Source: Anaerolineae bacterium
GTDB lineage: Bacteria > Chloroflexota > Anaerolineae > B4-G1 > SLSP01
Direction of reading: 5' to 3'
DNA: 64,000 nt
Assembly (NCBI GenBank): GCA_049974845.1
Contig: JBNGCP010000002.1
Coordinates: forward strand, 47,127-111,126
Part shown: positions 11,703 through 62,084 of the stretch, in pieces
Position numbering within the stretch: the stretch's first letter is position 1
Layout: each line of letters begins with the position of its first letter
Translations under genes and position numbers: made by a program
The notes under the pieces: generated by a model
Told to the model about the DNA's origin: nothing
The model's database searches: none
The model's input: the letters and a program-made list of their open reading frames with translations, nothing else

Positions 11703-13181
11703 TCAATCGTCCGATCTTGCCTCCGCCTCGGTCGGAGCGTCAGCATCCTCCACCGCCCCAGCCTCTTCCACTGACGCTTCTTCATCTTCGTCCCCGGCCT
11801 GAAGCTTGGCTGCCTGTCGCGCACTCCCAATATGCAGTGTGTCGTAGGCCTGCTGCGACGTCTTAAAGGCCCCAACGCCCTCGTGACCGTGCCAATCCCC
11901 TTGGTGGTAGATCGGGTTTGGAAGTCCCGTCTCCTCCTCGCGCTTGGCGATCCACCGCTCCATCCGGCCCCGCAGCAGATCGACGACACCGGGCTCGCTC
12001 TCGGCAAGATTGTGGTCCTCGTGGGGATCCGCGACGAGGTCGTAAAGCTCGATCGGAGGCTTGAAATGAAAATCAGGCTCCAGGGCCACGATGAGCTTCC
12101 ACTGCGGCGTCCGCCATCCGTGCTTGCGCATCCACGTGCACTCGGTGAGGTAGACCTCGCTCTTGTGCGAGACCACTTCACCGTTAGCCATCGGCATCAG
12201 GCTCTTGCCATCGAAATCGATGCCAGGGTCGAGATCTAGCAACTCCATAATCGTGGGCACGAGGTCGTATTGCTGCGCGTACCCCGTCACCCTCTTGCCC
12301 GCCGGTACCTTGCCGGGATAGCGGATGATCAGGGGCACGTGGAGGGTGACGTCATAGATCCCATGGTGGTCGAAGTAGCAGTCGTGATCATACAGGGTCT
12401 CACCGTGGTCCGACGTGACGATAACGAGGGTCTCGTCAAGGATGCCGTGGGCCTCCAACGCTGTGAAGATCGATTGTATTGCTGCATCCATGTAGGCGAC
12501 GGCCCCGTCATACTGGGCCACAACGTAATCCTTGTCCGTGATCCCCTCCGGCATCCACGAAGCGAAGTAGTCCCGGAATGGCTTGAACGCCATCACGGGC
12601 TCCATCGACGTGTTCTCGGGATCGCATTCGTTGCCGTGGTAGAAGATGCGTTCGTACGGCTCCGGTGGCAGGTAGGGCGAGTGCGGGTCCATATGACGCA
12701 GGAACAACAGGAACGGATCGCCCTCCGCCACCAAGCGGTCTAGCTCCGGAATGGCGACCTCATTGAGGTTCTGGGCCTTAGGGGCGCGACCACCTTCCTC
12801 CCCTCCCCATCCACTAAAATGAAGGTAGGTGTCAAAGCCCCGCGAGGCGGGATTTCCCTCGAACCCAACAGAGGTACTCGTGTACCCGAACTCCCTCAAG
12901 ATCTCCGCCAGCGTCTTGACCTCTGAGCGCATCGGACCCTGGTGGCGCAACGCCACGACCTGTGTGCTGAAGACGTCCATCCCGGTCAACATATTGGCGT
13001 AGCCACTGGTCGTCGGTATGTGCGGGCTGTAGTAGCGCTCGAAAAGCGTACCCTCCTGAGCAAAGCGATCGAGGTGCGGTGTCGTCAATCGGTCGTACCC
13101 ATAGCAGCTCATGTGGTCGGCAAGCAGTGAGTCAATGCCTACCAGCACGATGTTGGGAAGCTTCTCCTTATTCGTCGGCAT
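11703..13181 (-). CDS. Sulfatase-like hydrolase/transferase (alkaline-phosphatase superfamily) lacking the canonical formylglycine motif
   Basis: Sulfatase fold (NIVLVGIDSLLADHMSCYG, SDHGE). The C/S-x-P-x-R position reads IPTTSGYANMLTG, so Thr replaces Cys/Ser and Tyr replaces Arg. Acidic C-terminal tail. ATG at 13181 with GGAGGA upstream. Confidence 0.7.
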   Translation of the reverse strand: MPTNKEKLPNIVLVGIDSLLADHMSCYGYDRLTTPHLDRFAQEGTLFERYYSPHIPTTSGYANMLTGMDVFSTQVVALRHQGPMRSEVKTLAEILREFGYTSTSVGFEGNPASRGFDTYLHFSGWGGEEGGRAPKAQNLNEVAIPELDRLVAEGDPFLLFLRHMDPHSPYLPPEPYERIFYHGNECDPENTSMEPVMAFKPFRDYFASWMPEGITDKDYVVAQYDGAVAYMDAAIQSIFTALEAHGILDETLVIVTSDHGETLYDHDCYFDHHGIYDVTLHVPLIIRYPGKVPAGKRVTGYAQQYDLVPTIMELLDLDPGIDFDGKSLMPMANGEVVSHKSEVYLTECTWMRKHGWRTPQWKLIVALEPDFHFKPPIELYDLVADPHEDHNLAESEPGVVDLLRGRMERWIAKREEETGLPNPIYHQGDWHGHEGVGAFKTSQQAYDTLHIGSARQAAKLQAGDEDEEASVEEAGAVEDADAPTEAEARSDD

Positions 13182-13412
13182 CCTTGTCCTCCTAATTGTG
13201 TGAGCTATCCCGGCGAGCAAAAACGAAATCTGATGTAGCGAAATTCAAAGGAACGGGCCTGGACGGCCAGCATGTGGAGCAACACAGCGTTGGTCTTCGT
13301 GGTCATTCTGGTGTTGAGTCTATCATAAATTTAGGACAATCGCCTTAAGAAAAGTGACGAATACTATAACAGAATTGCCAACTCACCGTCTATGCGCTAT
13401 AGTGAATAGACG

Positions 13413-14309
13413 ATGACCGAACAACGCGTGCTCAACGACTCATATTTCTCGGAGCCAGATCTTCCCCTGGCGATGCAGCATACCCATCAGCCGGACCTCG
13501 TCCATCATATGCACACGTTCATCGAGCTCGTCATGGTGGTGGAAGGCAGTGGCACCCACGTCTTTGAGTCCGAGCGCTATCCTATCACGGTTGGTGACGT
13601 CTTCGTCATCCCACCCTATACGCCCCACGGCTATGAAAACACCAGGGATCTCGCCATCTACAACATCCTCTTCAAGGAGGAGATGCTCGCGAGGTACCAG
13701 AGCGAGTTGGAGCTGATCCCCAGCTTCCACGGGCTAATCTATCTGGAGCCCTACTACCGGTCGGTCCGCGACTTCGCCGGACGCCTGACCCTCACGCCGG
13801 AGCAGATCGTGCAGGCCACTTCGCTTATCACACGGCTCGAGCACGAGAGCAAGCATCGCCTCGAAGGCCGGAGGATCATGGTCGAGACCCTCTTTGTCGA
13901 GCTGCTCCTCTTCTACTGCCGCAGATTCTCGGAGAACACGGGATCCTCAACACGGGTCATGCCGGTGGCGCGAGCGATTGGGTACATGAACCAGCGCTTC
14001 GCCGAGCCCATCTGCCTCGACGACCTCGTCAAGGTCTCGGGGCTCTCCAAGCGCAGTCTGATCCGGCACTTCAAGAACACCACCGGCTTCACGCCGATCC
14101 ATTACCTGCAAAAGGTGAGGGTGGCCAAAGCGTGTGCGATGCTCGAGCAGGACGACCAGTCGGTCACCCGCACGGCCCTCGACGCCGGCTTCAACGATCC
14201 CTCCTACTTTTCCACGGTCTTCCGAAGGCATACAGGCGTCACGCCCAGCCAGTACGCGAGGACGCGCGGCACTGAAGGCTTCGATGGCTCAGCAGGCAGT
14301 AGGAAGTAG
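13413..14309 (+). CDS. AraC family transcriptional regulator (cupin sensor domain plus C-terminal HTH)
   Basis: C-terminal AraC HTH pattern (LSKRSLIRHFKNTTGFTPIHYLQKVRVAKA...DAGFNDPSYFSTVFRRHTGVTPSQY). Divergent from the sulfatase/oxidoreductase locus. Confidence 0.85.
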   Translation: MTEQRVLNDSYFSEPDLPLAMQHTHQPDLVHHMHTFIELVMVVEGSGTHVFESERYPITVGDVFVIPPYTPHGYENTRDLAIYNILFKEEMLARYQSELELIPSFHGLIYLEPYYRSVRDFAGRLTLTPEQIVQATSLITRLEHESKHRLEGRRIMVETLFVELLLFYCRRFSENTGSSTRVMPVARAIGYMNQRFAEPICLDDLVKVSGLSKRSLIRHFKNTTGFTPIHYLQKVRVAKACAMLEQDDQSVTRTALDAGFNDPSYFSTVFRRHTGVTPSQYARTRGTEGFDGSAGSRK

Positions 14310-21470: not shown

Positions 21471-21742
21471 CAAACACACTCCATCACCACGATATCAGTC
21501 GAATCAGGAAAAGCCCTGCTCGATCGCAGCCTGTATCAGGATACACGAGTAGTATACGAGTGTCACCCGGTGAGGCAACCTGCTGTTCGGGCTAGGGCAG
21601 TCGCAGTTGGCACCAAAGCGCCATCGGCATGACGAAGGCAAAGGTGCTGAACCTAGCTGCGATGATCCTCCCCTCAGCCTGGAACGCTAGTCTGGCACAC
21701 AGTACGCATGCAGAATAGCGTAGATAAGTGTATACTTAATAG

Positions 21743-21988
21743 GAGAAACATGAGCACGTCACCATCTCCGTGGAATACGACAATCAAGGTGTGCATCTAC
21801 GGATCGCGGATGACGGTGTCGGGTTCGTCCCGGCTTCGCACGGGGACGCCTACACACGCCAGGGACACTTCGGCCTTGTCGGTCTTCAGGAGCGGGTGCG
21901 TCAACTCGATGGCACCTTTGATTTCAGCACCGAGCCTGGCGAGGGAACCGTCCTCGACGTCTGGCTGCCCGATCATTCGTCATCGTGA
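21743..21988 (+). pseudogene. Remnant of a NarL/HisKA_3-type sensor histidine kinase (HATPase_c C-terminal domain only)
   Basis: In-frame ...VTISVEYDNQGVHLRIADDGVGF...GHFGLVGLQERVRQLDGTFDFSTEPGEGTVLDVWLP (G1/G2 boxes). It begins right after an in-frame stop. There is no dimerisation/His domain upstream and no response-regulator gene nearby. Confidence 0.55.
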
Positions 21989-22180
21989 CACCCCGGGAGG
22001 CTGACCGCCTCTCCCAGCAAGTGACGGAGCCTATAGCGCGGATGTGGTACAAGCACACAGCACACGACCCCACACCGACCTGCCATCTCGTGCGATTAGC
22101 CTGGGCCATCCCCGCCAAATAGCGGTGCCCGCCTCAGACCGTATAGCTCTCCACATCAGCCCACCCCTCGGGTACAGTGG

Positions 22181-39813: not shown

Positions 39814-40081
39814 AGAACGCGTCCTCCATGTTGCAGTGGGTTAACTAAAGAATCGGCCATCAACGTCATGGCGTCGACCAGCGACGCAGATTCTCCTTCA
39901 CAAGAGCACCATCGTTCAGCACCCAGGAAGCTCCACCCAGCATACACCGAAGCAATGAGGTCACAAGATACACAAGGAGCCGGCGCTTGATGTCCTGGAC
40001 ATACGACGTATACTAGGAGATTGAGCGATGCGTGCGCGGCCTATGGCCTGCGCCCTTACAAGAGGAGCGACAGAGAAGGAT

Positions 40082-40882
40082 ATGAGCGAACCGTTGAATC
40101 CAGCGCCATCCAGCGAGGAACGCCAGGTGAAGTCGATGAGCGTCGCCGCTATCGACGGCACGCCTGTCGCATACATCGTGAGTCTTGCCGCAGTGGTAGC
40201 CGTCCTCGCGATGATCCCCATCCCCATCTCCGTGGTCCTGGGATCGGGCAGGAACTTTCCGATGAGCCAGAGCATCTATCCGCTGGTGGGTTGGCTGCTC
40301 GGACCGATCGCCGGTGCGCTTGCCGATGGAATCGGAGCTCTGATCGGCGTCATCATCGCCCCACATACCACAAGCTCTGCACCGGCCACGATCTTCGGTG
40401 CAGCGATGGGTGGACTTGCCGCCGGCGCGATGGTAAACTCCGGCGCTCGTCGCTATTGGTGGATTCCGCTTTCGCTCCTTTTCGCAGGGTTGTACGTTCT
40501 GTATGCAGGCCGCGCCGTCTGGGTGAACCAGGTCAGTTGGACCAGCGTCTTGCTGGGTTCTTTCATCAACTGGTCCGCCCTGTTGCTGTTCGTCTTGCCC
40601 ACCCGAACCGTTCTGGCCGGATTCCTTCAGGCCTCAGAGATGAAAAGAGTTGGCGCAGGTCTCTTTGTCGGTACCTGGATGATCGCGGGGCTCGTTCATC
40701 TGAGCACCGGGGCGATTGTCTACACGATCATCAACTGGCCAAATGAGCTCTGGTTGGCCATAGCACCTCTGGCACCCATCGAGCACCTGATCCGCTGCAT
40801 CGCCGGCACGGGGATCGGCCTCGGGGTGATCGGCGGTCTGCGAGCCACGGGGCTGGTGAAACCCCTTCACGCGCGCTATTAG
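40082..40882 (+). CDS. Multi-TM membrane protein, possibly a transporter substrate-binding component (ECF S-component-like); function uncertain
   Basis: Six to seven predicted TM helices rich in Gly/Ala. ATG 40082 preceded by GAGAAGGA. Confidence 0.45.
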   Translation: MSEPLNPAPSSEERQVKSMSVAAIDGTPVAYIVSLAAVVAVLAMIPIPISVVLGSGRNFPMSQSIYPLVGWLLGPIAGALADGIGALIGVIIAPHTTSSAPATIFGAAMGGLAAGAMVNSGARRYWWIPLSLLFAGLYVLYAGRAVWVNQVSWTSVLLGSFINWSALLLFVLPTRTVLAGFLQASEMKRVGAGLFVGTWMIAGLVHLSTGAIVYTIINWPNELWLAIAPLAPIEHLIRCIAGTGIGLGVIGGLRATGLVKPLHARY

Positions 40883-41442
40883 CGTCCGATCCGCGCACGC
40901 GCTATCCTTGCCCAAGCCCAAACCCAACGTGTCAAACGAAGGCCACCGCCAAACCCAACGAGGGCCAGTGGCGCATTGATGGAACTTGTGCTAATATAGT
41001 AGACGAAAACACTATGATATCAGTGCAAGCACAGTGGACTCGAACGCCTCGGAAGCCCATATGCGATGTCGTGGGTGAGCACTCGTGGGTTTCAGTGCGC
41101 TGGTTCGGTCGCTTACACGTTATCAACTCATCGATCCCGTCGGAGGATCGATTGTTGCGCAATGCTCGAGTAGACCATTGACTATACAGCATATCAGACA
41201 AGCAGCGTTGGACGCCTACCGTGACGGAGGCCCCAAGTATAATGATTACATGCGCTGAAACACGCGTGACCGGTTTCGGCGGTCTCCAGGCCTGTGAGTG
41301 GATCAACCACAGGACAGAGTGCAGGTAAGGGGCACAGCCATATGTAGACGGATGAGCAAACCGTTTTGGGCCTGATACGGCCCCCCGTAAGCCAACAACT
41401 TCGGGGATGAGGCGGTTTCCTCATCCCCGAAATGCTGTCTTT

Positions 41443-42291
41443 ATGAATAGGAGGGAGACTTTGCCTGAGGTGAGCGAATCTCTGCAGGATCTACTGGCTG
41501 AGCTAATCGATTTCATCCCAGAATTGATTGTGGCGCTTATCACGTTCGGCGCCACGCTGCTGGCAGCCAAGCCCATAGCCAAAGCCGTCGAGCGGGCGGC
41601 CAGGCGCCGGATTGGGAAGGAAGAGACGGTGCATATCCTTTCCAGGATCGTCCGGTGGACCGTGCTGGTCATCGGCACCATTATCGCTTTGGACCAGGTG
41701 AACTTTGACGTCACCGGATTCCTTGCCGGTCTAGGCGTCGCTGGGATCACGATTGGGTTTGCGCTTCAGGATATCGCCCGCAACTTCGTCGCTGGCATCC
41801 TGTTGCTCGCCCGTCGGCCGTTTGAGATCGGTGATACTGTAGAAACGGTGGGATATACCGGAGAGATCGAGGATATCACAACTCGGGACACTGTGGTGAG
41901 AACGCTGGACGGTGAGAGGGTCATACTGGCGAATATCGATATACTCAGCAACCCCATTACGAACTACACCGCCTCGCCTCAGCGTCGTCGCACCATTTAC
42001 ATCGGTCTGGGCTATGGCCAAGACGTGCCGCAGGCGCTTCAGGTTTTTCAGGACACAATTGCAGGCGTGCCCGGTGTGCTTGAGGAGCCTGCGCCCAGCC
42101 TGCTCGCAGAGGAGTTGGGCGATTCAGCCATCACCCTGGCGGCGCGCTTCTGGGTCGATCCAGAGACCCATAGCCTGTTGGATGTGCACTCAAACGTCGT
42201 ACTGGCAGTGAATGCAGCCGCGGAACGGGAAGGCATCGACCTTCCGTACCCGATCCAGACGGTTCGTCTCGTGGAGAGAGTCCAAGCTTGA
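41443..42291 (+). CDS. Mechanosensitive ion channel MscS family protein
   Basis: MscS pore/beta-domain motifs (GVAGITIGFALQDIARNFVAGILLLARRPFEIGDTVE...GEIEDITTRDTVVRT...ILANIDILSNPITNY). Start ambiguous: ATG 41407 lies inside the upstream hairpin, ATG 41443 lacks an SD, TTG 41461 follows AGGAGGG. Confidence 0.75.
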   Translation: MNRRETLPEVSESLQDLLAELIDFIPELIVALITFGATLLAAKPIAKAVERAARRRIGKEETVHILSRIVRWTVLVIGTIIALDQVNFDVTGFLAGLGVAGITIGFALQDIARNFVAGILLLARRPFEIGDTVETVGYTGEIEDITTRDTVVRTLDGERVILANIDILSNPITNYTASPQRRRTIYIGLGYGQDVPQALQVFQDTIAGVPGVLEEPAPSLLAEELGDSAITLAARFWVDPETHSLLDVHSNVVLAVNAAAEREGIDLPYPIQTVRLVERVQA

Positions 42292-42366
42292 GCTTGTGCG
42301 CCCAGCCTGGCTCTGTTCGGCGCTTAGGGGCGGCAAATCCGCCAACTGGGCGCGGAGGAAGGATCA

Positions 42367-42681
42367 ATGGAGCGTCAGAAGGAAGTGCTGCAGAGGGAAC
42401 TTGACGAGCTCGAAGAGCAGATTACAGGTCTCGAGGAAGCTCTGCAGGTGAAGCCGGACTATGGTATGGGCAAGGGCGACCCCGCCGTCACGCAGTGGGA
42501 GCTGGATCAAGCGATGTTGGAGCGGCTCCGGGGACACGCCGATAAGTTACGCCAGGCCCTGGCTCGCCTGGACGAGGGCACCTACGGGATCTGTGAGCGT
42601 TGCGGCAAGCGTATTGATCCCAATAGGCTCGCCGTTCTGCCGGACACGACGCTGTGTGTGGAGTGCGCGCGAAAGGGATGA
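42367..42681 (+). CDS. DksA/TraR family C4-type zinc-finger protein
   Basis: Coiled-coil N-terminus then CERCGKRI...CVECA four-Cys finger. GGAGGAAGGA RBS. Confidence 0.75.
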   Translation: MERQKEVLQRELDELEEQITGLEEALQVKPDYGMGKGDPAVTQWELDQAMLERLRGHADKLRQALARLDEGTYGICERCGKRIDPNRLAVLPDTTLCVECARKG

Positions 42682-42844
42682 GGTCACCTTGGTATTCGAA
42701 GCAGTCACTCGTTCAGGCGCTCGAAACGCTCCATCAAGAGAGACCGGATCCGACCGAGAGCATCTGGCGATGGCTGGGACGCGGTGGACGGCCCGCGAGA
42801 GGTAAGAATCGGACGTAGAACCCCATCTATAACATGGGGATATC

Positions 42845-42873
42845 TTGGCTAACTATTGAGCGCGGCGTAGAAT
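42845..42873 (+). promoter_or_regulatory. Putative sigma70-type promoter for rpoD (-35 TTGGCT, 17-nt spacer, -10 TAGAAT)
   Basis: TTGGCT-N17-TAGAAT in an AT-rich stretch about 50 nt upstream of the preferred rpoD start. Confidence 0.4.
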
Positions 42874-42923
42874 ATCATGCTGCAGTGGATAATGGAAAAA
42901 AGGAGAAATTGATAGGAAAAACT

Positions 42924-44060
42924 ATGGAAGCTCTACGATTTCGCGAAGACCTTGAGAAATTCGACAACATCAAAGAGGAAAATGAGGACTACGAGGAGGA
43001 GCTTCTCTCCCTCGACGAAATCTTTGGCACTGACGTCGAGGAGGAAGACCTTGAGGGAGATCCTCTTGATGACTTTCACGCGTTCTTCGAAGAGGGCGAA
43101 GACGAGGATGAGTACGCAGACGAGGAGGAAGAGGAGCTCGTAGATATTGACAGCATCTCCTCAAGCGACTCGTTGAGCCTCTACCTTCAAGCAATGGGAC
43201 AGGTCCCACTCCTCTCACGTGAGGAAGAGATCGACCTGGCAAAGACGATGGAACGCGGGCGCGAGGCACAGCGCAAGCTCACCACCGGTGACTATGAGCC
43301 AGACGAGATCGACGCATTGGAGGAACGCATCCGGGAGGGTGAGGAGGCACGCAGTCACCTGACCGAAGCGAATACGCGTCTTGTCGTCAGCGTTGCTAAG
43401 AAATACCGTGGGTACGGCCTGCCGTTCCTCGATCTGATTCAGGCGGGTAATGTGGGATTGATCAAGGCCGTCGATAAGTTCGATTACCGCCGGGGTAACC
43501 GATTCAGCACCTACGCGACCTGGTGGATCCGCCAGGCTGTGACCCGGTCACTGACACAGCACGGACGGGGTATTCGCATCCCCATTCATATGAGCGATTA
43601 CCTTCGGAAGCTGGACAAAGTGTCACAGAATATGGAGCAGAAGCTCGGTCGCCGTCCGACCTATGAGGAGCTTGCCGAGGAGGTCAACGAGGACCCGCAT
43701 AAGCTTCGCCGGATGCTCCGACAGTCCCAGAGACCGGTCTCGCTTAACAAGGAGGTCGGTGATGAGGATACGTCAGAGCTCGAGCAGTTCATCGAGGACG
43801 AAAACGTCCCGGCGCCGGATGAGACTGCCGAACAGCGCATGATGCGGGATCAGCTGGAGCAGCTCCTGACCACGCTCGAACCGCGGGAAGCCTGGATTCT
43901 CAAGATGCGGTTTGGCCTGCACGGAAGCCGCACGCACACACTCAAGGAGCTAGGACAGAAGCTCGGCATCTCGAAGGAGCGCGTGCGTCAGATTCAGGGA
44001 CAGGCGCTGCGCAAGCTACGCCACCCCTACCACCGACGGCAGCTTCAGGACTTCCGGTAA
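42924..44060 (+). CDS. rpoD: RNA polymerase primary sigma factor (sigma-70, RpoD/SigA)
   Basis: Acidic region 1.1. Region 2 (FLDLIQAGNVGLIKAVDKFDYRRGNRFSTYATWWIRQAVTR), region 3, region 4 (LKELGQKLGISKERVRQIQGQALRKLRH). The start at 42924 is chosen because the promoter lies inside the longer ORF-track frame. Confidence 0.9.
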   Translation: MEALRFREDLEKFDNIKEENEDYEEELLSLDEIFGTDVEEEDLEGDPLDDFHAFFEEGEDEDEYADEEEEELVDIDSISSSDSLSLYLQAMGQVPLLSREEEIDLAKTMERGREAQRKLTTGDYEPDEIDALEERIREGEEARSHLTEANTRLVVSVAKKYRGYGLPFLDLIQAGNVGLIKAVDKFDYRRGNRFSTYATWWIRQAVTRSLTQHGRGIRIPIHMSDYLRKLDKVSQNMEQKLGRRPTYEELAEEVNEDPHKLRRMLRQSQRPVSLNKEVGDEDTSELEQFIEDENVPAPDETAEQRMMRDQLEQLLTTLEPREAWILKMRFGLHGSRTHTLKELGQKLGISKERVRQIQGQALRKLRHPYHRRQLQDFR

Positions 44061-44136: not shown

Positions 44137-44172
44137 AAGAAAAGCCAGGCGCCGCACGGCGCCTGGCTTTTG
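44137..44172. terminator. Bidirectional rho-independent terminator between rpoD (+) and the S8 peptidase gene (-)
   Basis: AAGAAAA-GCCAGGCGCC-gcac-GGCGCCTGGC-TTTTGC: a perfect 10-bp GC stem flanked by an A run and a T run. Confidence 0.75.
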
Positions 44173-55273: not shown

Positions 55274-57054
55274 GCGTACTCCTGGGCCAGATCATCCATC
55301 TGCTGATGGAGAACCTCTTCGATCTCATCAAGCTGTTCAAGCTCATCATTGGCAACCGTAGCCTTCATCCTGACAAGCAGATCCACAATGGACTGTTCCC
55401 GCAGGACGACAATCGGGCATCCCTGCTCTATCAGGTCGGCGGCCCGGTCATGAAACGCCAGGATAAGTTGCAGCAACCGGATCTGCTTCTCAGCGGTCGT
55501 GAACGTATCGATATCGTCCATTGCGTCTTGCTGTAGAAAGCCTTCGCGCAGCAGACGTGCCACTTCGAGGACAAGCCGTTGGTCGTCCGGCAACGCATCT
55601 GCACCAATAAGCTGCACGATTTGCTGGAGCCGACTCTCTCTCTGAAGGATACTCAGGGCACGACTGCGAACCTTCTCCCAGTCGCCGTAACCCTGTTCCG
55701 TCCACCAGGCGCTCATCTCATCGACGTATTGGCTATAACTACCAAGCCAATCGACCGCAGGAAAGTGTCGCTCCGACGCCAACTCCTTGTCCAGCGCCCA
55801 AAAGCAGCGCACAAAACGACGTGTATGCTGGGTGACCGGCTCCGAGAAATCCCCCGCGGGTGGGCTGACAGCGCCGATCAGGCTGACAGAACCCAGACTC
55901 CCGCTCAACGTCGTGACCCGGCCCGCACGCTCATAGAACTCCGCGAGGCGCGTCGGCAGATAGGCGGGGAAGCCCTCCTCAGCCGGGAGTTCCTCCAGGC
56001 GGCCAGAGATCTCCCGCAGTGCCTCAGCCCACCTCGACGTTGAGTCCCCCATCAAGGCAACATCGTATCCCATATCTCGATAGTACTCCGCCAAGGTCAC
56101 GCCGGTGTAGATGCTGGCCTCACGTGCCGCCACAGGCATATTGGACGTGTTGGCGATGAGAATTGTGCGCTCCATCAAGGAGTGATCTGACCATGGATCG
56201 CGCAACTCCGGGAACTGACGCAGCACATCCGCCATCTCATTGCCACGCTCCCCGCAGCCTACGTAGATAATGACATCAGCGTCGCTCCACTTGGCAATCT
56301 GATGCTGGAGCACCGTCTTTCCCGCGCCAAAACCGCCGGGAATCGCCGCCGCCCCGCCCTTTGCCAAGGGAAAGAATGTGTCGAGAACGCGCTGTCCCGT
56401 CACAAGCAGATCGTTTGGAGGCTGTCGCTCGGCATAGGGCCGAGGTTTTCGCACCGGCCACTGCTGCAACATCGTGACGCCCTGCTCGCCCCGATCACAA
56501 GCGATCTTCGCGATCTCGTCCTCGAGCGTGTAGATGCCTTCTGGCGCAAGCCACGTGAGTTCGCCAGCAAGCCCAAGAGGAACCATCACGCGGTGCTGAA
56601 CCAAGGGTGTCTCCGGCACCTCACCCACGATCGCACCACCCGAGACCTGCTGGCCCACCTCGACGCTCGGATGAAACTCCCATTCCTTTTTGCGATAGAG
56701 GGGTGTGAGCCGCACACCACGTCCGATGAAGGTCCCGGAGCGCATCTCCATTACGGGCAACGGACGCTGAATGCCGTCGAAGATGCTTGACATCAACCCG
56801 GGCCCAAGCTCGACCGAGAGAGGCGCACCGGTGCGGTAGATCGCCGCCCCGGGCTTGAGACCCGATGTCTCCTCATAGACCTGGATGGTTAGCTCATCGC
56901 CATTAAGCTCGATCACCTCGCCGACGAGATGGTCAGCGCCGACCTCCACCACCTCCTGCATACCAATCTGCCGCGACCCACGAGCGCGCACGACTGGCCC
57001 ATTGATCCAGGTAATCGACCCGGCGCGCTCACGCGTGATCTCGGTCCCGATCAT
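55270..57054 (-). CDS. atpA: V/A-type ATP synthase catalytic subunit A
   Basis: Walker [10 protein letters not shown]. 594 aa with the A-subunit non-homologous insert region. Confidence 0.9.
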
Positions 57055-57671
57055 GCATCCCTCTCCTCAGTCAATATGTCATAGATGCGCGACCGCAGCG
57101 TGAGCCGTCGGCGGTCCAACCGTGTCTGTAGCGTATTGTCGTATCGGAAACGCCCATCAGAGCTCTCGACCACAACGCCGATTCTTTCCGAAAGATCGTC
57201 ACCAAAGGCTATCTCCACCTCGGTTGCCTCTGCCAGCCGAGTCAAAGCATCTTCATCGAACATTCCGCGGGTTTGCGGATCAGCTCGCACCAGAACACTT
57301 GCGACGCCGGGCAGATGCTCGACGGCGTCCTTCACGAGCGCCTCGGTGATTTCTGTCCAGCCTTCGAGCTTGGCAGCATCTTGTAGTCGTTCCTCCGCTA
57401 AGCCGAACACTTCGCTCAGAAGCTCCTCGCGTTTTTGCAGCCGGTGCGCGGTCGCCTCGGATTGCCCCTCCGCGATTGCGCTTCGATGAATCTGGTCCAC
57501 TTCTTTGCTAGCATCGCTGATGATTCGCGCCCGGAGAGCCTCAGCTTCGACCTTCGCCCGCTCCCGAATAGTACGAGCCGTTTTCTGTGCGTCGCTAAGA
57601 ATCCGCCATCGGTCACCTTCGGCTTCGGCCTTGGCCGCTGCCCTCAGTGCGCCAACACCACTCTCGTTCAC
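57051..57671 (-). CDS. atpE: V/A-type ATP synthase subunit E
   Basis: Long coiled-coil N-terminus and globular C-terminus typical of subunit E. 206 aa. 4-nt overlaps with both neighbours. Confidence 0.7.
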   Translation of the reverse strand: MNESGVGALRAAAKAEAEGDRWRILSDAQKTARTIRERAKVEAEALRARIISDASKEVDQIHRSAIAEGQSEATAHRLQKREELLSEVFGLAEERLQDAAKLEGWTEITEALVKDAVEHLPGVASVLVRADPQTRGMFDEDALTRLAEATEVEIAFGDDLSERIGVVVESSDGRFRYDNTLQTRLDRRRLTLRSRIYDILTEERDA

Positions 57672-57973
57672 AGTCTCACTCCCAATGTGCGTCGCAGAAT
57701 CTCTCCGATGGACGGCCGATCAGGGTCAGGCCCCTCTGGCCCCGGTATCTGGACAAAGAGCGGTAGCTCGCTTCGCGCCATCAGATCGGCAATGCGATCT
57801 TGAGCCAGCTTCGCTACATCCTCGGTGATCAGAACAACCCCCACGTCACGCTGCTCCAGCACGTCATCCAAGGCAGCTCGTAGCTCAGACGCTGTCTCAG
57901 CTACCTGGCCATGGACACCCGTGAGCGCAAAACCCCAGACGGCCGGCCGCGAGCCAATCACGACAACCTTCAT
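57668..57973 (-). CDS. atpF: V/A-type ATP synthase subunit F
   Basis: MKVVVIGSRPAVWGFALTGV...VGVVLITEDVAKL pattern. 101 aa. Confidence 0.75.
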   Translation of the reverse strand: MKVVVIGSRPAVWGFALTGVHGQVAETASELRAALDDVLEQRDVGVVLITEDVAKLAQDRIADLMARSELPLFVQIPGPEGPDPDRPSIGEILRRTLGVRL

Positions 57974-57981
57974 AAGGAGAC

Positions 57982-58416
57982 TCAGCCAAGGATAATGAAA
58001 GCGATAATCAAACCGTAGATGGCCACACCCTCGGCCAGTCCCACGAAAATCAGCGCGCGGCCAAAGATCTCGGGTCTCTCAGCGATTGCTCCCACCGCGG
58101 CCGACCCTACCGTGCTAACCGCATACGCTGCTCCTAACGATCCCGCGCCCACCGCGATGGCTGCCGCTATGTAGGCCATGGAATCAGTCCCCGTCCCTTG
58201 CTGTCGCAGCCCCATAGCATAGACGACATCAGGGGCCAGGAGCCATACCAGCCCGAGCCCCGCTACGCACAGGGCGATCACTAGATGCGCCAGGCTTATG
58301 CCAAGAACCATCGGGCGCGCAGAGCTGCTATGCCCACGCCAGCGTCTGATAGCCCACAGAAGCGCCGGCAAGAAGGGAAACAATCCTGGTATCACAACCA
58401 TCAATCCTCTTAACAT
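57982..58416 (-). CDS. atpK: V/A-type ATP synthase proteolipid subunit K (c-ring)
   Basis: Gly/Ala-rich helices AVGAGSLGAAYAV and GLAEGVAIYGLIIAFI with conserved Glu. The true start may be the internal Met (MVLGISL). Confidence 0.75.
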   Translation of the reverse strand: MLRGLMVVIPGLFPFLPALLWAIRRWRGHSSSARPMVLGISLAHLVIALCVAGLGLVWLLAPDVVYAMGLRQQGTGTDSMAYIAAAIAVGAGSLGAAYAVSTVGSAAVGAIAERPEIFGRALIFVGLAEGVAIYGLIIAFIILG

Positions 58417-58462
58417 ATCGAAACCTCCTCATTGAGGACTAGCTATGCGGAATCGACGTGCA

Positions 58463-60415
58463 CTAAGGCCGCTGCTCCGCTCCCAGCAGCGTCAACGGCT
58501 GGTACTGCTCTCCACCGCCTGAGAAGAACTTATCGAAAAGCTCATAGTATTCCAACCTTAGTGTCTGGATGACCACAATAAGTCCCTCAAAGCCGATCAC
58601 AAGTACATTACCCAACACCACGGTTGCCCAGTAAGCAGGGCTTCCACTGGAGCCCACCCTGCGAGCCAAAATAAACACCACAAGGCTGAGAGCTCCATGC
58701 GCAACGGCGAAGGCCCCCATCCGCACGTAGGATAGCGTGTTGCTTAAGAGACCGATGACGGCCTCAAACAGCTCGAAGAATCCCTCAAGGAGCGCCAGGC
58801 CCACATCGACATCTTCCTCCCCGCCAGAGTAGACTACGCGCGCCAAGGGCTCGTGGACCACCACGGCCAGAGCGGACACCACCGCGACCGGGACAAGCAA
58901 CCCCATGCTGACCGGCACCTTCGAGGTGAGCAGGCCGGCCCCTAACCCGATCAGCGACCAGTAGAAGGCCAGCCCTGCAAGACCCTTTCGGTCCAGTGCG
59001 AGATCCACCCACTGACCTCGAATTCCCGCTCCAACTACATTGTAGATCATCCCTAGCGTCAGCACCGCGATACCAAACCCCACTGTCGCCAGCAGCACGT
59101 CCATCGTCCGTTCAATCGGGTTGAGCCAAAGAGCCGGAATGACATCCTCAAAACCAAAGAGACTGCCGTAAAGAAACCCAAAGGCTGCGGATACGACCCC
59201 GCACGCCACCGCGATACCACCAAGTCCTGAGAAGCTCTTGAGAGCGCGGATCCTTCCGCTTAGCAGTAACGCGCCAAGGACAACCAACACAAACCCGTGG
59301 CCAACATCACCAAACATCACCCCGAAAATCAAGGGAAAAGTCAACGCCAGCAATGGCGTCGGGTCGAGCTCCTCGTACCGAGGGAGAGCATAGTTGGAGA
59401 CCAATTGCTGGAAAGCCCTGAGCGCTGGAGGATTGTTGTACTCAAACGGCGCCCGAGAGCGCTCCTCAGGTGTAGGTTCGGTGATATCGATCGTCAAGCC
59501 CGAGGAAGCCTCCGCGATAAGGCGGCGAAACTCCTCGGCTTTGGACGCCGGCACCCATCCCGTGACCACGTAGCTGTAGCGAAGCCGCTCATATTGGGCG
59601 ATCGTCTCTGCCACTCTGCGGCTCGCCCGCACCTGCCACAACAACTGACGAAGCTTGCGGATGCGCGTCTCATGAAAGTGATGAATCGCCGCCTGGCCCT
59701 GCGCGATCCCCTCCCGGGTTTCATTTAGCTCTCTATCAAGCCTATCGAGTATCTCGTCCGGCGTCCCTTGGTATTCGTCAGGCAATTCGAGGCTGTTCAG
59801 GTAAGCGCTCCGGGCCGCTCGACGAAGGATATCGCTGTCGCGCCGAAGTCCGAAAAGACCCACGGTGGCCAGGCGGTCACGCTCGTCAAGGGTGACCAGG
59901 ACTGACGGCACATGTTCCAGACTGGTCCTGAGCCGCTCAACATTGCTGAGCGGCATAGAACCGAACATCGAGAAGATATACGTAGAACTGCGAAACGTCT
60001 CAAGCTCAATGCCTAGATCAGTGAGAGGCTCGATCTGGCTTCGCAGTCGCTGAAGCTGCGCCATCCGCTCTCGTGCTTGCTCGAGCTCTCCAACGGGTCC
60101 CCGAGCCTCTTCTTCAAGGGTCTCAATCTCGCGCGCCGCCTGATCCTCCGAGATCAGATGCGGCGTACCCCCGGGCGGTTCGCCTTCCTCTACCCCCAGC
60201 AAGTCCCTGACATCCGCGATTCGCTGGATCAAACGCGCATAAGTGTTGGCTCGCTCGCGCCAGCTGCCGGGGCCCAGGTCTGCAGCCTCTTGCTCTGCTT
60301 GAGGCGGTCTCGCCAGATGGAAGACGCCAGAAGCAGCCAACGCTTCGGTCACAGCGACAATATCATGTTCAGGTACAACAAGCTCAACCTTATACATTGG
60401 CTGAGATCGGAACAT
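58463..60415 (-). CDS. atpI: V/A-type ATP synthase subunit I (a-subunit)
   Basis: 650 aa. Hydrophilic coiled-coil N-terminal half and multi-TM C-terminal half with the conserved Arg-containing helix. Confidence 0.8.
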   Translation of the reverse strand: MFRSQPMYKVELVVPEHDIVAVTEALAASGVFHLARPPQAEQEAADLGPGSWRERANTYARLIQRIADVRDLLGVEEGEPPGGTPHLISEDQAAREIETLEEEARGPVGELEQARERMAQLQRLRSQIEPLTDLGIELETFRSSTYIFSMFGSMPLSNVERLRTSLEHVPSVLVTLDERDRLATVGLFGLRRDSDILRRAARSAYLNSLELPDEYQGTPDEILDRLDRELNETREGIAQGQAAIHHFHETRIRKLRQLLWQVRASRRVAETIAQYERLRYSYVVTGWVPASKAEEFRRLIAEASSGLTIDITEPTPEERSRAPFEYNNPPALRAFQQLVSNYALPRYEELDPTPLLALTFPLIFGVMFGDVGHGFVLVVLGALLLSGRIRALKSFSGLGGIAVACGVVSAAFGFLYGSLFGFEDVIPALWLNPIERTMDVLLATVGFGIAVLTLGMIYNVVGAGIRGQWVDLALDRKGLAGLAFYWSLIGLGAGLLTSKVPVSMGLLVPVAVVSALAVVVHEPLARVVYSGGEEDVDVGLALLEGFFELFEAVIGLLSNTLSYVRMGAFAVAHGALSLVVFILARRVGSSGSPAYWATVVLGNVLVIGFEGLIVVIQTLRLEYYELFDKFFSGGGEQYQPLTLLGAEQRP

Positions 60416-60464
60416 CCAGCCCTCCTCACCTCAACAGACCAGCGTTCGCTAGGGCTCCAGGCCC

Positions 60465-61538
60465 CTACAGGGCGGGCATCAGTAACCGCGACGTGAACAC
60501 TTGCGCGGGTACGCCTGATGCCTTGGCCTCAACCACTACCGTCAGGTCGCGGATCTCATACTCGTTGAGCCACACATACGCCAGCGGGAGACCAATATGA
60601 AAGGGTGAGCCGCGGAACATGTGTCGGCATCGCGTGACAAGGATCTTTAGGAATGCCTCCTCAAGCTTCTCCAACTCCTTACCTGAGACAATCTCATCTG
60701 CGGGAAGCACCTCATCAAGCTCTGGATATACGCGGACGACAACCTCTCGAATCGCATCACCCCGCGCGATGGCGCGAATATCCGCATCTTCAACCTCATA
60801 CCCCAGAGGAAGCGTGTAGTTGATGATCTCCTCCTCTGACAGATGGTGATAGATCCGATAGCGGATCGCCCAAAGCAGATTATCGGTGTCCAACGCGGTC
60901 CCCACGGTCTTCATCGCCATTTCGCGATCCGGCTGGTGAAGCCCCTCGATACAGGCCCAGAGCTCTCGACGATAGCCCAGATCAAGCGCCATCTCCAGGG
61001 GAAAAAGGCTCTGCTCTTCCTCGTAGCGAGTGACGGCATGCCGCAGTAACTCGTAGTACGGTGTTCCTTCTAGTATCTCTACGGCCTCAGGGACGGTATC
61101 TGCACCAACCACGCGCTCAAGTCGGTCTGTCCCGACGCTGATGAAGCGCTCCATTGGATAGAGAAGATGGAGAACGTAGTCCCAGGACGCAGCCGTCTCT
61201 ACTCCCCTGAGGGCTGCCTTCACGTTGTCCACCTCATAGTGATGCCATAGCTGGCGTAAGAGCTCACGCCCTGCCCCGCGCAACACCTGAATAAGCCCCT
61301 CGTACACGTCGGCGAGATGCCAACGGACCTGGTAGACGCTCCGGCGAGGAGTCAGCAAGCTTCGGTCGATCTCCAGATAGGGCCCGTAGATCGTGTCGGA
61401 AAGCAACGCCAGAACCGCGTCCAGATCCGCCGCGTGGATCAGCGACTCCCAGATTTCGTGTGAGAGCAGATCCGCATAGAGCGCACGCACCTTGGCCTGA
61501 ACCAACGCGTATTTGCTTACCGCCGCGAGGCCAAGCAT
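60465..61538 (-). CDS. atpC: V/A-type ATP synthase subunit C (d-subunit)
   Basis: 357 aa all-alpha protein with subunit C/d pattern. Confidence 0.7.
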   Translation of the reverse strand: MLGLAAVSKYALVQAKVRALYADLLSHEIWESLIHAADLDAVLALLSDTIYGPYLEIDRSLLTPRRSVYQVRWHLADVYEGLIQVLRGAGRELLRQLWHHYEVDNVKAALRGVETAASWDYVLHLLYPMERFISVGTDRLERVVGADTVPEAVEILEGTPYYELLRHAVTRYEEEQSLFPLEMALDLGYRRELWACIEGLHQPDREMAMKTVGTALDTDNLLWAIRYRIYHHLSEEEIINYTLPLGYEVEDADIRAIARGDAIREVVVRVYPELDEVLPADEIVSGKELEKLEEAFLKILVTRCRHMFRGSPFHIGLPLAYVWLNEYEIRDLTVVVEAKASGVPAQVFTSRLLMPAL

Positions 61539-61540
61539 CC

Positions 61541-61858
61541 CTAGAGGACCCTTAAGACCTCGTCGACAACGGCGTCGACGGCTTCTGCTATGCGTGCACG
61601 TGCTTCTTCGCCAAACAGCTCCGCTTCCTCGTCAGCCTCGGCCACGATGCGAGCACGCTCGGAAGCCGCGGACGCCTCCCCCGCCCGGATGATACGTGCA
61701 GCTTGCTCCTGCGCCTGCTTTCTCACCTCCTCACGCGTGGCGGCTGCATCCGCCCTAGCCTCTTCAAGGATTTTGTCCGCCTCCGCCTGCGCTTCAGAGC
61801 GGATCCTGTCCGCTTCCTGCTCGATCGTCAGGATCGCCCTCACGGTCTCCTCGTTCAT
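61541..61858 (-). CDS. V/A-type ATP synthase peripheral-stalk subunit (G/H-like)
   Basis: About 105 aa coiled-coil rich in A/E/R (ILTIEQEADRIRSEAQAEADKILEEAR...), first gene of the operon. Start chosen at the internal Met at 61858. Confidence 0.55.
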   Translation of the reverse strand: MNEETVRAILTIEQEADRIRSEAQAEADKILEEARADAAATREEVRKQAQEQAARIIRAGEASAASERARIVAEADEEAELFGEEARARIAEAVDAVVDEVLRVL

Positions 61859-62084
61859 CGTTGAACCCGCTCTCCAAGCTGTATGGCTGACATCGCAGCC
61901 GTTGAGGTACCAGCACACCATTGATCCAAGCACATTATAGACCTCGACCAAGACAATGCGAGCTTCGGCTCCAGTCTGTCGGTTGACCGGGGAGAAGCGG
62001 ATCCCCGGCCTCGAGATTTGTGATGCCTCTGTGAGGGACTATACTGACAATGCTCAAGGATGAAGGAGGAGAGAGGGGACCATA

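Follow-up and report, generated by a model that had tools for sequence, protein, structure and literature searches.

The window analysed here, a 64,000-nt stretch of Anaerolineae DNA to which all positions refer, contains between a membrane-protein gene and an MscS channel gene a region (40883–41442) that appears to combine the promoter region and the decayed 3′ end of a CheY-like response-regulator (RR) gene with a spacer ending in a conserved hairpin (Table 1). The GC content of the region is 0.548 vs. 0.613 window-wide, within the lowest 2% among 560-nt windows; that its GC is lower had been noticed in an earlier reading of the sequence (the initial annotation). A direct repeat that had also been pointed out there is present as the 12-mer CCAAACCCAACG at 40918–40929 and 40949–40960. 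The region is, however, not non-coding throughout, as that annotation had supposed: 41121–41258 is the 3′ remnant of an RR gene (tblastn, E = 1e-12; RR family profile).

Table 1. Features of the MscS-proximal region and its flanking genes (window positions; RR, response regulator; UTR, untranslated region; SD, Shine–Dalgarno sequence; ORF, open reading frame).
Feature	Position	Strand	Remarks
Membrane-protein gene	40028–40882	+	284 aa, multi-pass; from ORF list; weak Pfam match PF07155
A/C-rich tract	40905–40988	+	Holds repeat CCAAACCCAACG; AAC triplets at 40926, 40935 and 40957 invariant in the 10-locus alignment
Candidate extended −10, TGCTAATAT (TGnTAnnAT)	40989–40997	+	T, G, TA and AT columns invariant in 10 loci
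Deletion scar	41003–41120	+	Residual 5′ UTR and unrecognizable first ~90 RR codons
RR 3′ remnant (pseudogene)	41121–41258	+	Last 45 codons, in frame to the same TGA stop
TATAAT	41238–41243	+	Tyr-Asn codon pair of the RR remnant; not conserved
First half of RR–MscS spacer	41259–41343	+	Conserved only with the closest relative (81.6%); small hairpins
CAGGTAAG box	41322–41329	+	Also in the RR-to-sigma-70 spacers of L107, L109 and L120
Conserved ~95-nt element ending in hairpin	41344–41440	+	
Box 1, GGAUGAGCAAACCG	41350–41363	+	Core GAG[G/C]AAACC[U/G]; conserved in six loci; candidate antiterminator strand
P2, small hairpin GGGCC-ugauac-GGCCC	41368–41383	+	Predicted independently by RNAalifold
Single-stranded CCCGUAAG box	41384–41391	+	Conserved alignment columns
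Hairpin, 13-bp stem and 6-nt loop	41400–41431	+	TTCGGGGATGAGG-cggttt-CCTCATCCCCGAA; all pairs perfect
U/G-rich tail AAUGCUGUCUUUAU	41432–41445	+	Interrupted U-tract
SD AGGAGGGAG and MscS gene	41449–42291	+	Strong SD at 41449–41457; stop at 42291; Pfam MS_channel domains
DksA/TraR zinc-finger gene	42367–42681	+	Pfam
RpoD-like sigma-70 gene	42834–44060	+	Pfam
Canonical bidirectional terminator	44140–44171	.	Perfect 14-bp stem flanked by AAAA/TTTT; closes the cluster

The closest relative among ~5.8 billion proteins is encoded at locus L026, which is syntenic with the window (MscS 82% identical) and carries a 134-aa gene for a PF00072 receiver domain between the same membrane gene and MscS. The family is common in Anaerolineae, with 216 RR homologs at E ≤ 1e-5, the closest of which are 66–82% identical; intact relatives are 129–148 aa long and consist of the receiver domain only, with a conserved DKP motif and a short tail that varies. 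The window copy matches the L026 RR at 56% identity over residues 90–134, aligning to the last strand, last helix and tail of the receiver, and a profile of 22 RR family members matches only positions 100–127. Its identity to L026 over the three codon positions is flat (0.72/0.72/0.63, with 20 non-synonymous vs. 10 synonymous codon changes), whereas four intact neighbor genes give 0.84–0.94/0.92–0.96/0.54–0.63. Residues L105 and K107, the latter being the receiver Lys, are invariant in the 22 intact family members and are replaced by S and R in the window. Thus, given the flat codon-position identity, the survival of only the last 45 codons and the changed invariant residues, the RR gene in the window is a pseudogene. 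No Pfam receiver-domain match was found in the 57-aa ORF containing the remnant, nor in the neighboring 55-aa ORF, and the complete receiver fold (acidic pocket, phospho-acceptor Asp, conserved Lys) is not encoded. Judged by this content, the window copy, devoid of the phospho-acceptor half and with the conserved Lys changed, cannot be a functional receiver.

Upstream of the remnant, ~150 nt in the window (41003–41153) replace 429 nt in L026 (4693–5121), a loss of ~280 nt. Local alignment of this segment to L026 does not rise above shuffles, and the RR profile has no match in it. The TATAAT within the remnant, read by the initial annotation as a −10 element, exists as a sequence and fails as a promoter: it was rejected as a sigma-70 site because there is no −35 partner and L026 has GATAACAAT at that place. 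A scan of 40500–41800 yielded no promoter-like pair.

Sequence resembling a promoter lies instead at the 5′ end of the region, where an extended −10 motif is conserved upstream of the RR gene and follows the A/C-rich tract. Neither tract nor motif has decayed in the window, where they are 77.6% identical to L026 vs. 54–63% at third codon positions, and the block 40905–40997 is a putative extended −10 promoter of the RR gene, preceded by a control region. In the window genome, the motif would now drive whatever lies downstream. A sigma-54 reading of a TGGC near −35 was discarded, there being no GC/TTGC at the right spacing in our own reading of the alignment. The tract shows a strong A/C strand asymmetry over ~60 nt and carries the AAC triplets, features uncommon in promoter regions that bind proteins; alternatively, it may represent a CA-rich RNA feature if transcription begins further upstream.

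The hairpin at the 3′ end of the region is longer than the 11 bp first assigned to it, as 13 pairs are perfect. Eight of these are G–C, and with a stability of −23.7 kcal/mol (local fold z = −3.4) it is a GC-rich stem–loop of the kind found in terminators. Perfect hairpins of at least 11 bp occur only twice in the 64 kb (41400–41431 and 44140–44171), and dinucleotide shuffles average 0.23. Ten distinct loci were compared (the window, L026, L107, L109, L112, L116, L117, L119, L120 and L130), over which 99.2% of cells are paired and the covariation score is reached by none of 500 shuffles. Four pairs are changed on both sides, including A–U to G–C (L117, L119, L130), U–A to C–G (L130) and two basal pairs, and both single-sided changes (L112, L107) yield G–U on the + strand. 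Folding of homologous regions had been recommended by the initial annotation, and RNAalifold on the alignment independently recovers the stem; the loci share a covariation-supported stem–loop. The loop is 5–18 nt long; L107 and L109 have an insertion of 12 nt in it that lengthens the stem, which points to a folded strand rather than an operator of fixed spacing.

The hairpin keeps company with the RR gene, which is 130–145 aa long in ten related loci and occupies the same position just 5′ of it in all relative loci fetched. What follows it varies: MscS in the window, L026, L116, L117/118 and L130; DksA in L112; an HPP-family gene in L119, beginning 25 nt past the hairpin; and sigma-70, 350–400 nt further on, in L107, L109–111 and L120–129. 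In all 10 loci it begins 37–260 nt past the RR stop (141 nt past the stop of the remnant in the window), which is the position after a stop codon, on the coding strand, expected of an intrinsic terminator; the placement is classic in L120, at 37 nt past the RR stop and with GUUUUGUGUU behind it. Searches with a covariance model of the conserved element (R1) gave matches at RR loci only, with a single copy in the window; the 16 other Anaerolineae MscS loci and 80 unrelated RR loci searched had none. In a metagenome scan for RRs, the relatives among the matches listed are ≤43% identical and none has the element. Because the hairpin lies 3′ of the RR gene whatever gene comes next, and is absent at other MscS genes, it is, on this distribution of sequences, part of the RR gene and not of MscS; MscS had been its presumed target in the initial annotation.

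The wider cluster (40028–44060 in the window) comprises an epimerase gene (− strand), the membrane-protein gene, the CheY-like RR gene, the hairpin, one or more variable genes and the RpoD-like sigma-70 gene, and was seen in the window, L026, L107, L109, L112, L113, L116, L117, L119, L120 and L130. The variable slot between hairpin and sigma-70 holds MscS, HPP, DksA/TraR or a 129-aa ORF, and the order MscS–DksA/TraR–sigma-70 of the window is matched in L116, L117/118 and L130. The membrane protein, which weakly resembles an ECF S-component (PF07155), has a syntenic counterpart of 266–273 aa in L026, L107, L109, L112 and L120 and adjoins the RR gene in most relatives. In several relatives, sigma-70 is followed by genes for pterin-4a-carbinolamine dehydratase and encapsulin (Linocin_M18), and in L107 and L109 a ferritin-like gene comes after these two. 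The terminator that closes the cluster in the window lies between sigma-70 and a convergent 1338-aa gene; this genome thus uses full terminators.

A canonical terminator scan did not call the hairpin; its tail (AAUGCUGUCUUU) is U/G-rich and not a canonical U-tract. Read from the sequences, ~5–7 U occur in the 10 nt past the stem at seven of the 10 loci, the best U-tracts being those of L120 (given above) and L112 (GCUGUUUUCU); L107, L109 and L119 are G-rich. The hairpin ends 17 nt before the SD of MscS in the window and ~15–25 nt before it in the five loci in which MscS is next. No promoter fits into this interval, and MscS would therefore be transcribed from upstream, through the hairpin. The gene itself probably starts at TTG 41461 or GTG 41470; the 273-aa NCBI protein P0001 is 100% identical from the latter, and ATG 41443, the start codon assumed by the initial annotation, is probably not used. 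A further ATG (41407) lies inside the hairpin in frame with MscS (41407–42291), and for L026 (5399–6271) and L130 (3133–4029) gene callers chose MscS starts within the hairpin; these long starts are probably miscalls.

We consider it probable that the region is a composite produced by gene decay, consisting of the RR promoter region, the RR pseudogene, the RR–MscS spacer and a hairpin downstream of RR that acts as a leaky terminator. The ancestral order would have been (membrane protein), promoter, CheY-like RR, hairpin, (MscS), (DksA/TraR) and sigma-70. The window genome would then have lost ~280 nt, comprising the end of the 5′ UTR and approximately the first 90 RR codons, leaving the last 45 codons to drift without coding constraint. 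The hairpin would form as a + strand RNA stem–loop and serve as the intrinsic terminator of the RR gene, with the interrupted U-tract making termination leaky; transcription reading through from the RR promoter would express MscS, and probably also DksA and sigma-70, as one unit. As an attenuator, the hairpin would set the flow of transcription into the stress genes MscS, DksA and sigma-70, and the conserved box 1 (Table 1) may raise read-through by vying with the 5′ arm for pairing with the 3′ arm. The dead RR gene would now act as a 5′ UTR of ~460 nt, and it is in this limited sense that the single 560-nt leader of the initial annotation survives; as a structure it does not, being mostly promoter and dead gene.

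The composite reading draws on the observed synteny, the decay of the RR gene, and the conservation and covariation of the hairpin, and also on constraint in the RR–MscS spacer, which is 80.6% identical to L026 vs. 54–63% at third codon positions. Several points weigh against it. Promoter activity, termination, read-through and any switching are all predicted from sequence. The tail is non-canonical, with G-rich tails in L107, L109 and L119, and termination efficiency could be near zero; the hairpin could instead serve stability, processing or protein binding. Seven of the 13 pairs are invariant though the RR proteins are only 66–82% identical, which exceeds the need of a plain terminator, and six loci also conserve box 1, P2 and CCCGUAAG, for which a simple terminator has no need. 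The deletion may in principle be an assembly error of the metagenome-assembled genome (MAG), but the substitutions in the remnant follow a relaxed pattern, which speaks against this.

The foremost alternative is that the ~95-nt element (box 1, P2, CCCGUAAG and hairpin) is an attenuator or riboswitch for MscS, DksA and sigma-70 that responds to a ligand or protein. Box 1, P2 and CCCGUAAG occur together in six loci, five with MscS next plus L112 (DksA next). Box 1 (shared form GAGGAAACCU; GAGCAAACCG in the window, at 41354–41363) is the reverse complement of the hairpin loop and the top of the 3′ arm, a geometry like that of a terminator and its competitor. Its 6-bp core pairs in five of the six sequences, and the one compensatory change (U–A to G–C) is that of the window; the alternative helix is 87–94% paired in the six sequences, and a 14-bp version 86.7%. 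The 3-bp core of P2 is invariant or covarying (C–G to U–A in L116), its outer pairs being weak, and CCCG of CCCGUAAG could pair with the basal CGGG of the hairpin's 5′ arm, a pairing without covariation. The proposed sensor fold would join box 1 to the loop and 3′ arm, would engage the base of the 5′ arm with CCCG, and would thereby exclude the terminator and turn the stress genes on. In its favor, blocking the 5′ arm makes the alternative helix the top fold of each of the six sequences, the interval from hairpin to SD is too short for a promoter, and the element, which is not in Rfam, would be new.

Against regulated attenuation, the comparison comprises six sequences and a single compensatory event, and the alternative fold is 16–31 kcal/mol weaker than the unconstrained one. 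L112 has a changed loop and an unchanged box 1, L120 keeps the AGGUUU loop without box 1, and L119 has neither box 1 nor a spacer long enough for one. The competitor mimics the 5′ arm instead of pairing with it, which is kinetically awkward, and the hairpin predates the link with MscS. No sensor is evident: RNAalifold gave no multi-helix aptamer-like core with conserved junction nucleotides beyond P2, Rfam gave no known aptamer, and no small ORF conserved across the six leaders was found in our own reading. The terminator-like geometry noted just before MscS is supported as regards the conserved stem and its complementary upstream box. We regard a ligand- or protein-responsive attenuator as unlikely, and it is correspondingly improbable that the element is an undescribed Anaerolineae-specific regulated attenuator that gates RR transcription into an MscS/DksA/sigma stress module and became its sole control after the death of RR. 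The element is most simply a conserved leaky terminator, a terminator/attenuator hairpin specific to one Anaerolineae cluster. The RR-to-sigma-70 spacers of relatives (L107 3365–3851, L109 3448–3883, L120 2939–3373) are 435–490 nt long and hold further features without an Rfam match, namely a strong hairpin (e.g., GCGCCGGT...ACCGGCGC in L107 and L109) and the CAGGTAAG box of Table 1.

The same conserved block could be a small RNA of ~90 nt, independent or derived from the RR 3′ UTR, with CCCGUAAG or box 1 as its seed and its end at the hairpin. It does end in a strong stem–loop with a U/G-rich tail and has the low folding z-score given above, and it lies 140–260 nt past the RR stop in the loci with box 1, which would be a long 3′ UTR. 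No −10 or −35 is conserved 5′ of box 1, however; a CATATG-like stretch between the RR stop and box 1, considered as a promoter, has no consistent −10 hexamer and was rejected. The element is also co-oriented with the SD of the next gene and ends 15–30 nt from it, as is typical of a leader, and we hold a small RNA to be distinctly unlikely.

An inverted repeat acting as DNA, either a palindromic operator for a dimeric regulator or a hairpin of recombination or of a mobile element, would account for the unusual conservation of the half-site (seven of 13 positions invariant), and symmetric changes in both halves are also expected of a co-evolving dimer site. Fixed half-site spacing would nevertheless be broken by a loop that varies from 5 to 18 nt and whose insertion extends the stem, the single-sided changes are both G–U on the + strand, and there is one copy per locus with no repeats elsewhere in the window, which makes a DNA-level role very improbable. 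Other copies of the region were likewise not found within the window, so that it is not a repeat or a miniature inverted-repeat transposable element.

That the 560 nt form a structured leader or belong to a known riboswitch class (e.g., c-di-AMP ydaO/kimA), no gene ever having been present, as the low GC, the strong terminal hairpin and a whole-region fold slightly below shuffles (z = −1.4 on the + strand, −2.8 on the − strand) might suggest, can be set aside as hardly credible, since known families are refuted by the lack of any Rfam match even at E ≤ 10, "no gene" by the RR remnant and conserved RR promoter that fill more than half of the region, and the middle 150 nt are unconserved even with the closest relative. 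The + strand value is unremarkable against shuffles, and that of the − strand may be due to the palindromic hairpin and G–U asymmetry; the G–U pairs in relatives favor the + strand. The four matches of cmscan (Rfam 15, E ≤ 10) in 40000–42500 are attributable to chance (two miRNA precursors and two snoRNAs, 11–18 bits), and at gathering score there are none in the whole window or the 10 related loci. Pfam gave sub-threshold noise only on the four ORFs inside the region, a search for tRNA or tmRNA was negative, and blastn and nhmmer found no similarity between the region and 25 MscS loci from GTDB species representatives, the upstream regions of which are short and unrelated.

Elsewhere in the window, the gap at 21480–22180 (~700 nt), whether non-coding or a pseudogene, is no shorter than 40883–41442, and the claim that the latter is the longest non-coding stretch is therefore doubtful. 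The only ORF in this gap (72 aa, 21770–21985, + strand) matches a histidine-kinase ATPase domain (PF02518, E = 1.9e-7) over the C-terminal part of that domain only, and it may represent the second two-component gene to have decayed in this genome. Where ORFs of at least 150 aa leave other large gaps, two of these hold small genes and the third is 21480–22180; two apparent ORF-free gaps are accounted for by small subunit genes of a V/A-type ATPase operon at 57051–62000 (101 aa, 57668–57973; 144 aa, 57982–58416; 136 aa, 61541–61951). At 13363–13403, promoter-like matches overlap on opposite strands (TTGCCA-17-TATAGT on the + strand; TAGACG-18-TATAGT with a TG extension on the − strand), just 5′ of a + strand ORF starting at 13413 and in the part of the window that is lowest in GC, from near 13121 on.

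The analysis defines a conserved, lineage-wide Anaerolineae cluster (RR, hairpin, MscS/DksA, sigma-70) and corrects the reading of the locus, in that the low-GC "leader" is a dead two-component gene with a still-conserved promoter, which is a caution for riboswitch hunting in MAGs. It also yields an RNA element of ~95 nt with a covariation-supported stem that is covered by no Rfam model; were it a regulated attenuator before a sigma-factor operon, it would offer a new way into the stress regulation of a phylum that has been little studied.

With respect to known systems, the remnant aligns to the C-terminal part of CheY-like single-domain RRs (PF00072) and, unlike functional receivers, is missing the whole phospho-acceptor half and has the conserved Lys changed. 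The ydaO/kimA c-di-AMP riboswitch (RF00379) has a large, pseudo-symmetric, multi-helix fold; what the region shares with it is the general context of osmotic and ion-homeostasis genes downstream, whereas the element is ~95 nt long with two hairpins and gave no match at any threshold tried. As in trp-type attenuators, RAT/ANTAR/T-box systems and riboswitch platforms, an upstream segment is complementary to the terminator and mutually exclusive folds are possible, and as in terminator/antiterminator leaders the element lies immediately 5′ of the regulated SD. In those leaders the competitor pairs with the 5′ arm, whereas here it pairs with the loop and 3′ arm; in contrast to trp-type, T-box and riboswitch leaders, the element has no conserved leader peptide and matches no T-box or riboswitch model, and none of the sensors of an attenuator (aptamer, leader peptide or protein-binding site) is found in it. 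By our reading, the AGGUUU loop presumably does not fit the dual-hexaloop pattern of ANTAR.

A further close likeness is to intrinsic terminators. In this class the hairpin is followed at once by a U-tract of 7–9 nt, and suboptimal tracts give weak, factor-aided termination (PMC3993855). The hairpin described here differs in its interrupted U-tract, which is missing in three relatives, in a stem sequence conserved far beyond the need of folding, and, relative to the terminator at 44140–44171 in the same genome, in having no flanking A4/T4 runs. Like intrinsic terminators that serve as operon attenuators, it has a GC-rich 13-bp stem and a short loop, follows a gene in relatives and is succeeded by a U-rich stretch; and like internal operon attenuators, it has a regulator gene on its 5′ side, while the genes 3′ of it lack the space for their own promoter.

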